DNA from: an uncultured delta proteobacterium
GTDB lineage: Bacteria; Desulfobacterota; Desulfomonilia; Desulfomonilales; Desulfomonilaceae
Length of the DNA: 64,000 bases
Assembly: GCA_963789265.1 (NCBI GenBank)
Contig: CAWBKB010000003.1
Span: forward strand, 320,001 to 384,000
Direction of reading: 5' to 3'
In this document: positions 37,701-43,700 of the stretch, piece after piece
Layout: every line of letters begins with the position of its first letter
How positions within the stretch are numbered: the stretch's first letter is position 1
Position numbers: made by a program

Positions 37701-40700
37701 AGCAGTTGGCGCGAGGCATCCAACTACAATGTTCATGGTGGATGAAGCTTACGGAGACTTTGTGGAGGGGATGCCCTCCTTCACGAAGGATCGACCTCAT
37801 AATGTCGTCGTCCTGCTCTCTTTGACAAAGAACTTCGCTATTCCAGGACTGCGCCTGGGTTGTGGAATCGGTGACCGACAATTGGCGGATCGGATCAAGA
37901 AAATACAACCCCCCTGGACAGTCAATGCCATGCCCAGGCCGTGGGAGAGGCAGCGTTGCAAGACAAGGATTGGACTGAACGAAGCCGGGTGTACCTGAAA
38001 AATCAGCGGGAGAAGATGGTTTCGCTTCTCAGATCCGTACCATCCCTGACTGTGTATCCCGGCGAGGCCAACTTCCTTCTGATCCGCATCGATCGCTCGG
38101 ATATTGACGCAGAAACACTTTGGCGGCGAATGCTGCACCAGAACATAGCGATCCGGGTCTGTTCCAATTTTGATGGATTGGACAACCGTTTCTTTCGCAT
38201 TGCGGTGAGGACCGAGCAAGAGAACCGGCAAATGCTGAAATCTCTTGAGGCGGCTATGTAGGAAAGGGGTTAGCGGCTAATCGGAACATATATAGTCGTC
38301 AATCCGCAAGCGGGAAACAATAAAGGGTCGCTTACCGCTGTTGATCACAGGCACGTCCTCCACCTCTTCGATCAAAATTTTCATGTCCGGAGATTGCAAG
38401 CACTTGCGGATTTCGTTGACCAGGAATCTCTTCTTATCAACGGGAAACTGCTTCCACGGCACTATATTCACGACCAAAGTCTTGAGATCTTCCTGAATGA
38501 TCTGTACGGCATTTAAACCCTCAATGTGACGAAAGGGGTGAGTCATTGACGATACCGATACAAATCGCCTCTCAGGTGTGACCACGATGTCACCCTGTCG
38601 TCCTTCAATTCCCGATAGAACAGGGTGATTCCTGCCGCAACAAGACGACTTCGCCTCGCCCGCTGCCAAGTCTCCAGTTCGGTACCTTATAAACGGCATG
38701 GCGAAATTATGGAGAGAGGTCCCCACGATCTCAAATTCACCCGGTTCAGCGGGTATCAGTTCCACCACATTCTGTTCCATTTGAATGTGGTAACCTTGAG
38801 CCTTTGCGCACTGAAAAGCCTCGGCGACCAATTCTTTTTGCCCGTAATGGGCGATCACCGGAACGTCAAGCACTTTCTCGGCTAATTCCTTGATGTCGGG
38901 ATAAAGCGCTTCGGAAGAAGTTATGACATATTTTAGCGGCGGGATGCTCTTGTTGTTGGCCTCCATCCATCGAGTGAGGATGTAGAGCGAGGACGGAAAG
39001 GCTTGGAGAAACGCGGGCTTGAATTTTTGAAGCGTCACCACGATTCGTTCAAGTGCCTGGCGGGCGACACTTCGAGCACTGAGTTTTAGGATTCTCGAGG
39101 TGGGGGAATAGCTGTAATCTTGATCTGAGTTGGCAAAAATGTCCGACTTGAATTGGGCGATTACATCCTTGGGCTCGTAGCCGAGCCAATAAAGATGGCG
39201 TCTCAGAAGAGCCCTTTCAAAGGCACGTGCTTCGGTGCTTATCAGGAAATCAAGTGGCGCTCCCGTCGAACCGCTTGTCTCCACTAGTTCTCTCCGCGCC
39301 TGTCCGATATTAACGGCCAAAAGGTCTCGTTTCCTTTCCCGCACTATCTCCTTTGTAAGAAAAGGGAGCTTTTGGAGGTCCTGAACCGTCACAATGTCTT
39401 GTGGAGTGAGAGAAGCCTTTCGGAATACCTCTCGATAATACGGTACGTTTTCATAGCAATGGTGGATCAATTTCCTCAGCCGCCATTCTTGGTAGCTTTC
39501 AAGACTTTGTAAATCCCACTCATTGCTGTACCGAAATAGAGCTAAAGCCTCCCTGTAGGCCCTGCCGTAGCGCATTGAAGGCGGGAGCAGCCGATACGTG
39601 GCTTTGGAGAAATCTTCCCAACGCGCGGGCATGATCCGCAGCATTTTTTTCAGATAACCTCTAATCATGCCTCACCCCTGTGGCCACTTTAATAGTTATA
39701 CCTAACCGGCGGCCTGTCAAGGCGAACACAGTAACCTTATCGGAAGGACAAGACGGGTTTGGTGTTTCTTGTAGCAATTGCTCCGGCGACCGGGATTTAT
39801 CACATGATAATAATGGGTTATCATGCCGGGACGGACTCTGTCTCCACGGCCAACAGTGTCCATCCGGGACCGAGCTTCTCACAACGAAGAGATTTCCAGC
39901 GTCGTAGAAGTCCCGGCGTCCCATCCATCCCATAGAAAGGCGTTTTCCCTCCCGTCGGCAATGAGCCGCATAGCGTACCGGACCTGCTCCTCGTACAATT
40001 CACAAAAAGCCCCGGGTTTGTTCATCCCTCCATTCATTTCATAGGCTTCCGCAGGACATGGGGAACCGCAAAAATGCCGTACCGCGCAAGCAGAACACGG
40101 CGTGATCTCTTCTACTTTCCTGCCGGTGACAGCCCTGAAAGCGTCTGTTTCCAAAACTTCGGATATATTGTCTCGGAAAAGATTCCCTCCCTTGAACCCC
40201 GGTAATCCCACGAACTCACTGCACGGGAACAGATCTCCTCTCGCTCCTACTGCGAAGAAACATCTTCCCCCGCCACATGGCGAAATGTCGCACATCAGAC
40301 GCCGAGCCAGAGGCGCGACTATGCTGATTAGAACATTGGCGAAATTGGCTATCACCAGTTTCCGCCCGGTCCGTTGATAAAGTTCATAGGTTCGATCAAG
40401 GGCCTTGAAATAAGTAGTAGCTAATTCAGCGTCCCTTGGCTTGATGTCTCGAGCCCCTTGTCTCGTGCATCTCACGGGGTTGAGCATCCCCATTGGAACT
40501 TCCATTTCGTGAAGGAAGTTTACGATGTCGGTTAAGGATTCCATGTTCTGGGTCGTGACTGTACAGATCACATTGTAATTCGAGTAGCCCTTCAACCTCT
40601 CAAGCGTGACGACTACCTTCTTGAAGAATCCTTCACCCGCCCAATTCTTCCTCGTCCGGTTTGCTATACTCTCTTCATGACCGTCCAGCGAAAGCCCTAT

Positions 40701-43700
40701 CCCTATATTCCGAGAGACGAGGAACTCGATAGACTCGGCGTCTAGGAGCGTACCGTTGGTTCTGGATGCCGAAACTGAAATCATCTATGTATTTCGTGAT
40801 ACCGGCAAAGAGTGCATCGCGGGCAAGCATAGGTTCTGAACCGTGGAAAACCACCTGGGGAAGCCTTCCTTCAGGCAAAGTGGTTCCGAAGTATTCCTTG
40901 AGGATGCCTAGTGCTGTGATAAGTTCTTCCTCAGACATTTGACCGCCGTTTCGGCGCATGTCTTCCGGGATATAGCAATATGAGCAGTTGAGGTTGCATC
41001 GTTCCGTGGGATTGAAATAAACCGCGGAAGGTTTTAGGCCGAACCGAAGCAATTCCATTTCTCGTGTAAAGTCCTCTCGTTTCTTGCCAAACTCCTGCAG
41101 TAGAGAGCTGGACCTGTCAAGGGCTTCGCTGATCTTCTCCTTTTTCAGGAGAGACCAAAACGCGGTGTCGGGATCCACGAGGGCAACGTAGTTCGGGTGT
41201 TCGATGTCGATGAGTTGGATGGTAGGCCCATTGCCTGAGTTGAAATAATGACCGCGGGATGAGGCCAATGTGGCCTCCGCTTTGCTTATGTCCATGAACA
41301 TGTCTCCTACAAAAAGATTGTTTACTCTTCCTATGGGCGGGGGTGATGGATTGCTCCATACCCCCGCCGGGGCTGAGAGGTTTACTTGGCCTTGGCCACC
41401 GTGAGAATGTAGTGAGACAACCCGGTTCCATCGGCCGCGCAGGTCTTGCGATAGGCTATGATGTCCTTCACTTCTTCATCACCTCCTTTCTTCGCTGCGA
41501 AATAAAAAAACCCTGACACCCAAAAGGTGCAGGGTTCTACTTTTGCCATTCGACTTACCCTAGCCTAAACGCCCGTCTTCTGGCTTTCGGGTTATCCTCC
41601 GCCTGCCCTTCCCATCCGGTTTAGACCGGACAGTGGCTATGCAGGCTTCGTAACCGATTACAGCGGCGGGACCGCCACGGATTTACACCGTGTTCCGATA
41701 GCGTCCAGACTTTGTGCTGCATATTTAGCATTAAGCCGGTTCGGGCTGTCAAGGAAAAAGTCGCCCGCGAGGTAATCCCTTAGTTATGGGCGGTAAAAGA
41801 ATGTCATTGCGAGCGGAGCGAAGCAATCTTTTCTTCTAACTACCTAGATTGCTTAGTCGTTTCACTCCTCGCAATGACAGGGAACTGACTTTTGCCCCGC
41901 GTAACTGAATGGTTACCCCGCGAGGACCATCGGGTTGGGTTGGCTTCCGTTGCGGCTCTCTCGCCGAGAAATTATTATTATAGAGCAAGTCTGAAAGGTG
42001 AATTACATGTCATCAGAGATTTCGACGCGGCGAATCGTAGTCCAGTCAGTGATTTGGTTCGGGTTTATGTTCGTTTGTCTGTTTGGGTGTGCGGGGACTT
42101 TCATCTGGCCTGAAGCCTGGTTTTACATCTTCATACAGACCTCGTCCTCCGCAGTCATGGTCGTTTGGCTCAGGAAACACAACCCCGAACTTCTAAAGGT
42201 GCGTATGGAGCTATGGAAACGAATGGCAAAACCCTGGGACAAAGCCATCGTGGTACTTTTTATTGCTGATTCCATACCTCTGTTTGTCCTTCCCGGCTTG
42301 GACGCTATAAGATACCAGTGGTCGCACGTGCCGCTACCAATCAAAATACTTGGATTTGCCGTAATGCTCGTCTCATCCGGTTTGATTTTTTGGGTATTAA
42401 AGACGAATCCTTATTCCTCGGCAGCCGTCGAAGTCCAAAGAGAACGCGGTCACAAGCCAATCACAACGGGACCCTACCGATTCGTCCGCCACCCAATGTA
42501 CGTGGGCGCCATATTGTGGTTTATTTCTACCCCCTTGGCTCTTGGTTCTCTCATCACACTCATACCCGCCACAATTCTTGCCGCGTTGATCGTGCTGCGG
42601 ACCTACCTGGAAGACAAAACTTTGCATGAGGAACTGGAGGGTTATGCGGCTTATACGCAAACGGTGAAGTACCGGCTGATACCGGGCATCTGGTAGTTTA
42701 TGGAGCTACGCGAGAGTTAGGACCTCACGCCATCGAGGCACGTGAACGTCCAAGCCGAACTGTTCTCTTATGGCCTTTGCCAGCACCTCACTCGAAGTCG
42801 GTTCGCCATGAATTACAAAGACTCGAGGCTTGGACCTGCCGGAAAAGTGTCCTACCCATCTCAGAAGATCTGCCTGGTCCGCGTGAGAAGACAACCCCCC
42901 GATGGTGAATACTTTTGCCCGAACCGCGATTTTCTCCCCGAAGATCCTGACCATTTTGGCTCCGTCCACGATCTGCCGGCCCGTGGTTCCTTCGGCCTGG
43001 AATCCGACGATCACAATACTTGCCCCGCGATGCCACAGGTTGTGCTTCAGGTGATGCTTGATCCGGCCCGCTGTGCACATGCCGTTGCCGGCAATAACAA
43101 TCGCAGATCCTTGCAGTTGGTTGATCTGCATGGACTGGGCTGTTGTCAATGTGGGTTTGAGATTCGGCATATCGAATGGGTCAAAACCCTGCCCTACAAT
43201 GGCCTGAGCAGCACTGTCGTAATACTTTTTGTTTTTTCGGAAGATCTCCGTTGCTTTGATAGCAAGAGGGCTATCAAGGTACACGGGAATATCGGGAAGG
43301 TGCCCGGCTCGGAAAAACTCCCCAAGAAGATAGAGAATTTCCTGGGTTCTTTCGAGAGCGAATGCGGGAATAATTACCTTTTCTTTGTGAGAAACCGCAT
43401 ACTTGATCGCGTCCAGTAGTTCCGCCTTGCTCTCATCGAATGTGCGGTGCAGACGGTTACCATAAGTTGATTCAATGAATAAGAAATCCGCCTCAACAAT
43501 TTCAAAAGGATCTCCCACAATCAACTGGTCATGTTTTCCCAGATCGCCGGTGAAGACGATCTTTGTCTCCTTCCCCTGATCCTCGATCCACATTTCCGCA
43601 ATGGCCGAACCGAGCACATGCCCTGCGTTTCTGAGTCGGACCTTGGTGCTCGGCTCAAGATCAATAGTCTGATTAAGCTCTACCGGAGCCAGATACCGTA

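Follow-up and report, generated by a model that had tools for sequence, protein, structure and literature searches.

A CbpA/CbpB peptide cassette behind a cobalamin riboswitch in an uncultured Desulfomonilaceae bacterium: an intact family member that may be activated by corrinoid

Why does a cobalamin riboswitch stand ahead of genes for a very short peptide and a radical SAM maturase, in which direction does it act, and what would the modified peptide be for? The question is raised by a locus in a 64,000-nucleotide stretch of an uncultured Desulfomonilaceae genome (hereafter the window, in whose positions all coordinates are given). The locus matches both HMMs of the CbpA/CbpB or 'cobopep' pair (NCBIfam TIGR04164, cobo_pep; TIGR04163, rSAM_cobopep). 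This pair is already catalogued, and our locus does not differ from it in kind: the peptide gene lies upstream of the maturase gene, and a cobalamin riboswitch precedes both. It departs from the catalogued pair in that its 55-aa gene call is overlong and its cbpB is split by the assembly. Our literature searches returned no paper on the CbpA/CbpB family and no published function.

The 55-aa ORF (41382–41549, minus strand) scores 48.3 bits against TIGR04164 (cut-off 35), with only residues 31–49 matching the model, and it crosses the intrinsic terminator of the riboswitch at 41537–41504. The real cbpA most likely runs from a GTG at 41471 to 41382 on the same strand and would encode 29 aa; a Shine–Dalgarno sequence, AGGAGG, lies at 41487–41482, and the L008 ortholog has an ATG start at the residue matching the proposed GTG. 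The genome-wide survey's note had described a 55-aa peptide gene of the CbpA family; the family holds on the TIGR04164 score, whereas the length falls to 29 aa, as the longer frame reads through the terminator. CbpA contains a single invariant Cys, and its core, R-x-x-C-x5-GLSHY, is near-invariant over loci labelled with more than 10 different phyla or classes.

The cobalamin (corrinoid) riboswitch aptamer ahead of cbpA (41553–41741, minus strand) matches the full RF00174 model with 82.8 bits (E 2.2e-19), reproducing the survey's call of a riboswitch preceding the peptide and maturase genes. Exactly two RF00174 matches occur in the genome, as the survey had counted, and the other stands ahead of cobU-cobT, in agreement with that part of its gene assignment. 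The Rfam P1/P2 columns contain numerous non-canonical pairs on this aptamer, and the closing helix is probably formed by 41711–41701 paired with 41572–41562 rather than by the Rfam P1; as read by eye, this candidate helix is an 11-bp AGUCUGGACGC/GCGUUUAGGCU pairing. The L5 loop reads UCCCG. A TTGACA at 41747–41752 (minus strand), also read by eye, is a low-confidence candidate for a –35 box and would place the transcript start near 41712–41716; it was not called by the promoter-consensus scan of the window, and several orthologous leaders also have TTGACA a short way 5' of the aptamer.

Two hairpins that share a strand follow the aptamer. The P13-like hairpin (41531–41561, minus strand) pairs AGGGU (41561–41557) with ACCCU (41535–41531), has a duplex energy of –10.4 kcal/mol and contains the conserved AUGGCAAAA (41549–41541) in its loop. 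Its 3' strand also forms the 5' arm of the intrinsic terminator (41561–41531 versus 41537–41504), which consists of GAACCCUGCACC-UUUU-GGGUGUCAGGGUU followed by U7 (41504–41537, minus strand). The terminator hairpin is present in both the MFE and centroid folds and amounts to –18.9 kcal/mol by itself, and its inner hairpin is also listed by the terminator scan of the window. Across 25 leaders, the mean pairing energy between the upstream element and the 5' strand of its own terminator is –11.9, compared with –8.5 when pairs are swapped and –7.4 when they are shuffled. The conserved loop motif was found in 25 of 28 leaders, and 22 of 31 cross-phylum leaders were flagged for the shared-strand P13/terminator design. 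In the window, the terminator-pairing strand comes immediately after P1; a small extra hairpin is present in leaders L011 and L015, so the absence of a separate P13 is not valid for all lineages.

By analogy with the activating cobT riboswitch of Alkalihalobacillus halodurans, we favour, with moderate confidence, an ON switch that is activated by corrinoid. Corrinoid binding would stabilise P13 and, because the P13 3' strand is common to the terminator 5' strand, would let transcription continue; without ligand, the far stronger terminator would prevail. According to Procknow et al. 2023 (PMC10653944), the cobT P13 is GAGG-CAUGGCAUAC-CCUC with its 3' strand common to the terminator, as in the cbpA leader, and AUGGCA lies inside the loop in both; synthetic riboswitches designed to activate had the shared strand, and 7 of the 12 activated. 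By comparison, that paper describes a repressing metE riboswitch (P. megaterium) with L13 (CGGGAUA) 5' of a separate antiterminator. Set beside the metE-type row KK669 of that paper, the window leader has no CGGGA-type loop ahead of its terminator-pairing strand and no separate P13 bearing an L5-complementary L13 ahead of an antiterminator composed of the P13 3' side and the terminator 5' side. The gene contexts are alike as well, in that some genomes carry the CbpA/CbpB cassette in one operon with cobT and cobS. The analogy is nevertheless partial. The cobT L5 is GCCCG, instead of UCCCG, and the cbpA leader therefore falls short of the four-pair kissing loop seen in cobT: its L5–L13 complementarity is only about 3 bp (UGG with CCG). 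Covariation of the two loops is not clean, since leaders with L5 ACCCG carry AUGG as well as AAGG. CbpA leaders also differ in having a P13 of 5–8 bp with a loop of 8–21 nt and in controlling a peptide and a radical SAM enzyme. The survey's description of the peptide as B12-starvation-induced finds no support in this platform, which lacks an element by which ligand could disrupt an antiterminator and resembles the activating cobT design in its shared strand and AUGGCA loop. Against the ON reading, almost all cobalamin riboswitches known to us repress, and in genome G327 cbpA and cbpB lie inside a btuB-cbi operon, a kind expected to be B12-repressed; the leader of that operon also looks shared-strand, so the shared-strand rule may not be decisive.

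The distribution of the cassette bears on its composition and its role. Scores above the TIGR04163 cut-off occur in 34 of 401 phylum genomes (counting G000), and the cassette occurs far outside Desulfobacterota. A proximal riboswitch on the same strand precedes 27 of the 30 best Desulfobacterota loci, in one further locus a riboswitch heads a long operon, and a CbpA-like peptide is present in all 30; these independent counts bear out the survey's statement that most maturase loci have both upstream. The riboswitch is also found upstream in 31 of 40 cross-phylum loci, and the two f54 genomes carry the cassette with no detectable riboswitch, a point against the explanation preferred below. In most of 20 large Desulfobacterota loci, the gene that follows is unrelated and runs convergently; the cassette is thus a two-gene unit, cbpA plus cbpB. 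In the window, the cbpA stop at 41382 lies directly upstream of the cbpB ORF start at 41301. A gene for a PaaK/F390-synthetase-like adenylating enzyme (38277–39668, minus strand; best match NF045666, 132.7 bits against a cut-off of 300) follows 210 nt downstream of cbpB. The survey had listed this gene with the cassette, noting that it was not conserved across its 20 loci; it is present, and its membership did not survive comparison. Pfam hits (E up to 1e-6 or 1e-8) revealed no PaaK/F390-type homolog in 20 Desulfobacterota loci, where ORFs up to about 4 kb from the maturase were scanned, or in 32 cross-phylum loci, where the scan took in the two ORFs closest downstream, and we rejected the gene as a cassette member and regard it as a local neighbour. 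At cross-phylum locus L077, an AMP-binding plus acyltransferase ORF is among the two nearest, on the opposite strand.

Gene context supports a tie between the cassette and cobamide or cobalt metabolism. At least 13 of the 53 loci examined place the cassette within or next to cbi, cob, cobalt-transport or salvage genes, including those for CobT, CobS, CbiB, CobD, CobQ, CbiZ, BtuF, CbiX, CbiMNQO and NicO. The G327 order is riboswitch, BtuB-like, CobD/CbiP, CobA, CbiA, CbiC, CbpA, CbpB, CbiX, CbiM, ThiC-like, CbiQ and CbiO; at L045 the cassette is followed by CobS-CobD-CbiB, and at cross-phylum loci by CobT(-CobS), CbiM/CbiQ, NicO, CobQ, CbiZ or BtuF-like genes. In the window, cobD (threonine-phosphate decarboxylase; 37201–38261, plus strand) is adjacent to the cassette and convergent with it. 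At L028, L078 and L082, the cassette with its own riboswitch stands directly ahead of a second riboswitch, which at L082 is followed by CobO-like and CobB-like ORFs, as read by eye.

The CbiX, CbiMNQO and NicO links are also compatible with a cobalt-supply role under limitation, which counts against the explanation that we prefer. A classical OFF switch could respond to B12 shortage by releasing synthesis of a modified peptide, a metallophore- or chaperone-like scavenger of cobalt or corrinoids. This explanation, in outline the survey's own and in our view rather unlikely, follows the general rule that cobalamin riboswitches repress, and it would account for a cassette that adjoins CbiX and CbiMNQO in G327, CbiM/CbiQ in L070 and NicO in L080; the His, Tyr and Cys-derived sulfur of CbpA, read from the peptides, would be plausible metal ligands. 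HlyD and ABC-2 genes lie downstream on the same strand at L042, but this is 1 of 20 Desulfobacterota loci, and no exporter, peptidase, receptor or immunity gene is conserved in those 20 or in the two nearest downstream ORFs of the 32 cross-phylum loci, which speaks against the survey's proposal of corrinoid or cobalt acquisition by a released peptide. The leader, moreover, has no ligand-dependent means of disrupting an antiterminator and resembles an activating design, and a cassette riboswitch placed ahead of a second riboswitch would be odd if both followed the same logic.

In the assembly, cbpB (39879–41301, minus strand) matches TIGR04163 in two pieces, 40675–41301 (model 2–153, 230.2 bits) and 39879–40784 (model 152–428, 477.3 bits), of which the C-terminal piece alone passes the cut-off of 375, and it is the sole locus of the genome to do so. 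The CxxxCxxC motif of radical SAM enzymes is present as CNLNCSYC in the 208-aa piece, the SPASM domain is matched by TIGR04085 (52.2 bits) and PF13186 (27.4 bits), and the CbpB alignment has nine further invariant Cys. Profile matches were to CteB (5wgg, 116 bits) and anSME (95 bits). An ortholog model (pLDDT 87.7) has an N-terminal domain of three strands plus helices at residues 25–82, and Foldseek ranked CteB (5why) first with this model (E 2e-19, 459 columns), followed by anSME. Together these show CbpB to be a CteB-like enzyme that combines a radical SAM core with a SPASM domain and has a putative RRE-like domain at its N-terminus. CteB, the thioether-forming SCIFF maturase (PDB 5WGG/5WHY), is thus the best profile and fold match over the full length including the N-terminal domain, and CbpB likewise has two auxiliary-cluster Cys sets, although identity is only 17–19% and SCIFF peptides contain six Cys compared with the one invariant Cys of CbpA. 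We know of no riboswitch or cobamide link for SCIFF.

A SPASM-type maturase is also what PqqE and MftC are, and CbpA resembles PqqA and MftA as a very short precursor with housekeeping-like conservation beside such an enzyme, its core near-invariant over loci labelled with so many phyla or classes. CbpA might then be a sacrificial precursor, as for PQQ and mycofactocin, with a cofactor or an alternative cobamide lower ligand or linker cut from the GLSHY core, an idea that we find doubtful. The operon shared with cobT and cobS at L060 and L102 would suit it, as would ATP-dependent carboxylate-activating enzymes of different families after cbpB: PaaK-like in the window, AsnS-like at L059 and Dph6-like at L059, L066, L067 and L100. 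Such accessory enzymes are sporadic, however, at about 6 of 53 loci, and whereas the PqqA/PqqE and MftA/MftC systems always include further tailoring and peptidase genes, CbpA/CbpB conserves two genes only, with no peptidase or extra tailoring enzyme. PqqE matches the fold much less well (Foldseek rank 37), and the nearest solved relatives, CteB and anSME, work on Cys residues inside peptides without excising any residue.

That the closest enzyme relatives produce thioether RiPPs would also suit an antimicrobial or signalling RiPP of sactipeptide- or ranthipeptide-like kind with a coincidental riboswitch, but this is very improbable given a riboswitch kept in 27 of 30 Desulfobacterota and 31 of 40 cross-phylum loci, a core near-invariant over deep phylogeny where bacteriocins evolve fast, and the lack of a leader-cleavage motif or a conserved transporter or immunity gene in the loci examined. 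The survey's view that the product is rather not an antibiotic is upheld, because of this invariance and the absence of conserved immunity or export genes.

One base wrongly inserted by the assembly at 40760 breaks cbpB, as the survey had suspected of the split maturase. An independent contig from run X1 lacks this base (a single contig of depth 3.7, from a study that is possibly the assembly's own source), and its removal restores a 473-aa frame that aligns to the G179 ortholog without gaps over 461 columns with 75.3% identity. The genes cobD and cobU are split as well, which fits an indel-prone assembly; cobD matches TIGR01140 in two pieces (model 1–229 at 37201–37998, model 234–330 at 37941–38261), with its break at 37932–37944, outside the contigs compared. 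Two overlapping cbpB frames could be taken for a genuine frameshift in a decaying pseudogene, but with the extra base absent from X1, no stop elsewhere in either half, 75% identity to an intact ortholog on read-through and two more split genes, decay is hardly credible.

On balance, we lean slightly towards an intact, ordinary CbpA/CbpB member: a corrinoid-controlled leader, a two-gene unit and an intracellular cross-linked peptide for cobamide or cobalt handling. The transcript comprises the corrinoid aptamer, the P13-like hairpin, the intrinsic terminator, cbpA (most likely 29 aa) and cbpB. CbpB would bind CbpA at the N-terminal (V/I)-I-x-x-R part and make one intramolecular cross-link, most likely a thioether, from the single invariant Cys to the invariant GLSHY segment. 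With two genes in the conserved unit and neither an exporter nor a peptidase among them, the modified product would remain intracellular, and it may serve late cobamide assembly, salvage, or the handling of cobalt or corrinoids.

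The cassette lies on the minus strand of the window and opens with a full-length Cobalamin aptamer (41553–41741; Rfam match, 82.8 bits, E 2.2e-19), followed by a 55-aa ORF (41382–41549) matching the CbpA peptide model TIGR04164 with 48.3 bits (cut-off 35). The radical SAM/SPASM maturase gene cbpB follows in two overlapping pieces, an N-terminal one (40675–41301; TIGR04163 positions 2–153, 230 bits) and a C-terminal one (39879–40784; positions 152–428, 477 bits; cut-off 375). Downstream on the same strand is a PaaK/F390-like ORF (38277–39668; best family 132.7 bits, below its cut-off of 300), convergent with cobD (37201–38261, plus strand). 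A profile search of the genome (6.06 Mb, 9 contigs) gave exactly one further Cobalamin aptamer, at the head of cobU–cobT, in agreement with the genome-wide survey's note on the number of riboswitches and, for cobU and cobT, on the genes under the second; no further locus reached the TIGR04163 cut-off. As that note also stated, the family pair is already defined, and the NCBIfam names already hold CbpA/CbpB and the riboswitch link. No paper on the family was found in the literature searched, and papers and supplements beyond it could still bear on the matter. The window cassette is an ordinary member of this long-named family, with an assembly artefact.

The surroundings of the cassette hold three further features. 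An imperfect inverted repeat (GTCATTGCGAG...CTCGCAATGAC) occupies 41802–41880, a short distance upstream of the riboswitch. Metagenome contigs reach a summed depth of 93 there, and loose ends and variant inserts are numerous; the element resembles a repeat common to many genomes. A beta-CASP/MBL ribonuclease is encoded at 42706–44166 (minus strand), with type VII CRISPR Cas14 as its top NCBIfam match at 361 bits, far below the cut-off of 800; an ordinary enzyme of the RNase J/aCPSF-like type is the probable product. A tRNA gene (RF00005, 45.9 bits) lies at 49178–49261 on the plus strand.

The frames of cbpB switch at a run of two bases within the motif Q-T-N-G-T. A contig of the public run X1 covering 40745–40951 lacks one base at 40760 and is otherwise identical (a single contig of depth 3.7, possibly the source study's own); the runs X2 and X3 covered only small parts of the stretch. 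Removal of base 40760 in silico yields a single 473-aa frame, which aligns with the intact ortholog of the sister genome G179 in one gapless block of 461 columns with 75.3% identity. Like cbpB, cobD and cobU (1887–2454, plus strand, of the fetched locus L001) each consist of two overlapping frames, the cobD break (37932–37944) being outside metagenome contig coverage. Few genes were inspected and three of them are split, so that the assembly appears indel-prone. The X1 contig, the gapless repaired frame and the cobD and cobU splits together argue that cbpB is most likely intact and its break an assembly error, which bears out the survey's suspicion of an indel.

CbpB carries the motif CNLNCSYC and a SPASM domain, and an alignment of 20 orthologs has a mean column identity of 67%, with nine invariant cysteines besides those of the radical SAM motif. 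Against solved structures, the CbpB profile scores 116 bits with CteB (5wgg) and about 95 bits with anSME. The predicted model of a CbpB ortholog (pLDDT 87.7) has an N-terminal domain of three strands plus helices ahead of the barrel, and a Foldseek search with it returned CteB at the top (E 2e-19, 459 columns), followed by anSME, TigE, ChlB and SuiB. Since the closest relatives act on peptide cysteines and CbpA has one invariant cysteine, CbpB would install a single Cys-derived cross-link in CbpA, probably a thioether.

The peptide gene is most likely shorter than the 55 codons assigned to it by the survey. The CbpA model matches residues 31–49 only, and the first half of the ORF crosses a strong intrinsic terminator, GAACCCUGCACC-UUUU-GGGUGUCAGGGUU followed by U7 (41537–41504), whose hairpin is found in the MFE and centroid folds alike. 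Downstream of the terminator, AGGAGG (41487–41482) precedes an in-frame GTG at 41471, and the corresponding residue in the sister genome G179 (locus L008) is an ATG, preceded by an identical Shine-Dalgarno sequence. These sequence features together favour a cbpA gene at 41471–41382 that encodes 29 aa. By eye from the peptide listings, the core reads (V/I)-(I/V)-x-x-R-x-x-C-x(5-7)-G-L-S-H-Y-(I/V/L)-(L/M), with Lys-rich ends. A leader peptide ("MAK...") initiated at the AUG conserved in AUGGCAAAG was also considered and rejected on two grounds: the leaders of Betaproteobacteria carry AAGG, UAGG, CAGG or GUGG at this position, and the frames downstream show no conservation.

Within the phylum, 401 genomes were sampled, and TIGR04163 exceeded its cut-off in 34 of them, the source genome included, and in 26 of 255 genera; in one family the figure was 11 of 12. 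Among the 30 best loci, 27 have the aptamer upstream on the gene's strand (exceptions L009, L019 and L025), and 29 encode a peptide with G-x-S-H-Y; L009 has the variant GLAHY, so that all 30 encode the peptide. The survey's claim that riboswitch and CbpA-like peptide recur together thus holds in these best loci. The most informative locus is L009 (genome G327), where cbpA and cbpB are located inside one long minus-strand operon with a riboswitch (50.5 bits) at its head, followed by genes for a BtuB-like receptor, CobD/CbiP, CobA, CbiA, CbiC, CbpA, CbpB, CbiX, CbiM, a 125-aa ORF, a ThiC-like protein, CbiQ and CbiO. In L019 and L025 (family f54, 35–39% GC), no riboswitch was found at E ≤0.1 over 45 kb, nor even at E ≤10 within 6400–6950 of L045, a larger fetch of L019; CobS–CobD–CbiB genes lie about 1 kb downstream of the L045 cassette. 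In L045 and L050 (genomes G073 and G107), where no riboswitch was detected, the cassette is located directly 3' of bamA.

Beyond the phylum, a pattern search plus tblastn gave 548 relatives among 600 pattern matches, and identity is 48–57% for about 45 of the 80 retained loci. The taxa given in the record titles of these loci are Omnitrophota, Dehalococcoidales, Verrucomicrobia, Planctomycetota, Nitrospirae, Acidobacteria, Alpha- and Betaproteobacteria, Anaeromyxobacter and Actinomycetes, and the carriers include a cultured isolate, Dechloromonas hortensis. An upstream aptamer is present in 31 of 40 loci scanned (16/20 and 15/20; 2 of the 9 misses have <360 nt upstream), and the peptide is encoded in 39 of 41 loci searched.

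Most leaders share an architecture between aptamer and cbpA. Of 28 leaders, taken from 27 loci and the window, all but L007, L030 and L031 (25 leaders) have a motif AUGG(C/U)AA just 5' of the terminator, and the roughly 20 nt preceding it pair with the 5' strand of their own leader's terminator. The mean duplex energy is −11.9 kcal/mol for own pairs, as compared with −8.5 kcal/mol for upstream elements against the dissimilar terminators of other leaders (n=504; p 1.6e-6, Mann-Whitney) and −7.4 kcal/mol for shuffled upstream elements (n=1000; p 5e-10), both p values overstating the significance because the leaders are kin. Several pairs change together between lineages (CCGGGC/GCCCGG, ACUCCU/GGGAGU, GAACUC/GAGUUC, GGAGUCC/GGAUUCC and AGGGU/ACCCU), from which we infer that the conserved structure is a hairpin, P13, with the motif in its loop (L13) and the terminator's 5' strand as its 3' strand. 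This hairpin is weak, in contrast to the strong terminator (−18 to −37 kcal/mol); the same shared-strand design was flagged by script in 22 of 31 cross-phylum leaders. In the window, AGGGU (41561–41557) lies directly 3' of the aptamer's apparent closing helix, 41711–41701 with 41572–41562, which was assigned by eye; the columns of the Rfam P1/P2 pair poorly. Leaders of family f11 carry hairpin-rich inserts of 150–450 nt, between terminator and cbpA in L029 and L032–L036 and between aptamer and P13 in L036; in some of them, inverted repeats are long and perfect, as though small mobile elements had inserted there.

This arrangement bears on the sign of the switch, for which the survey had assumed repression. 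According to Procknow et al. (2023, PMC10653944), A. halodurans cobT is the only known activating corrinoid riboswitch; its P13, GAGG-CAUGGCAUAC-CCUC, has a 3' strand common to the terminator, and of 12 synthetic riboswitches intended as activators, with the P13 3' side shared with the terminator 5' side, 7 did activate. The CbpA leaders resemble this cobT leader in the shared-strand P13/terminator design and in AUGGCA in the loop. No element for a ligand-driven break of an antiterminator was found in the leaders examined. Against activation, complementarity between aptamer loop L5 (UCCCG in the window) and L13 is about 3 bp only, with no clean covariation to mark the partner of L5, the btuB–cbi leader of G327 is also shared-strand in appearance, and the prior for activating corrinoid switches is low. 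On balance, we lean somewhat towards an ON switch.

The conserved unit is two genes, as the gene 3' of cbpB is mostly convergent and unrelated in 20 large Desulfobacterota loci. The PaaK-like adenylating enzyme, which the survey had listed behind the maturase and found not conserved in its 20 loci, does not recur among the 196 ORFs scanned there (both ORF sets were united, since the GC3-filtered greedy caller lost real genes at moderate GC), and HlyD plus ABC-2 genes follow in L042 only. Across phyla, the same-strand ORFs downstream of cbpB in 32 loci include those for CobT (L102), CobT then CobS (L060), CbiM and CbiQ (L070), NicO (L080), CobQ (L067), a Dph6-like PP-loop enzyme with CbiZ (L066) or a BtuF-like protein (L059, L100), an Asn-synthase-like enzyme (L059) and a GNAT acetyltransferase (L083, L096). 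A second Cobalamin aptamer lies directly 3' of cbpB in L078 (4092–4315), L082 (4091–4314) and L028 (1137–1324), forming two adjacent units, each with its own switch; the one in L082 is followed by a membrane protein gene and by CobO-like and CobB-like ORFs, the latter two assigned by eye. Beyond its own riboswitch, the cassette is tied to cobamide or cobalt genes in at least 13 of 53 loci. The Dph6-like ATP pyrophosphatases (PF01902; L059 4884–6320, L066 2876–3541, L067 3171–3824, L100 3873–4538) recur beside cbpB with CbiZ, BtuF-like or CobQ genes; to our knowledge, no part in cobamide metabolism has been described for these enzymes.

The cassette is best read as an intracellular peptide system of the housekeeping type that belongs to cobamide metabolism. 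Under an ON switch, corrinoids, possibly in incomplete form, would trigger production of the peptide, which would fit the frequent company of CobT, CobS, CbiB, CobD, CobQ, CbiZ and BtuF. The cassette may also serve cobalt handling, as the links to CbiX, CbiMNQO and NicO suggest; it is a matter of speculation that the His, the Tyr and the thioether of CbpA bind cobalt or corrinoid. Like the survey, we set aside an antibiotic. There is no support for a secreted scavenger made in response to B12 starvation.

In anaerobes, no small peptide is known to participate in the biosynthesis or salvage of cobamides or in the trafficking of cobalt, and activation by a corrinoid riboswitch has experimental proof in one case only. 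A fuller joint account, which we consider improbable as a whole, would see in the CbpA leader a second family of activating corrinoid riboswitches, natural and very widespread (loci labelled from more than 10 phyla or classes), and in its cargo the first RiPP-type factor of cobamide metabolism. A cross-linked, Lys-rich peptide, made when free corrinoid appears, would bind incomplete corrinoids or cobalt intracellularly through its invariant His with Tyr and thioether, and would chaperone corrinoid towards assembly of the nucleotide loop or remodelling; at its boldest, the account would have sporadic adenylating enzymes beside cbpB ligate the peptide to corrinoid as a peptide-borne lower ligand. 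The value of this particular window is modest. In the CbpA/CbpB cassette at large, the sign of the switch and the chemistry of the peptide are directly testable, because the cassette is compact (a leader and two genes), extremely conserved and present in at least one cultured carrier, Dechloromonas hortensis.
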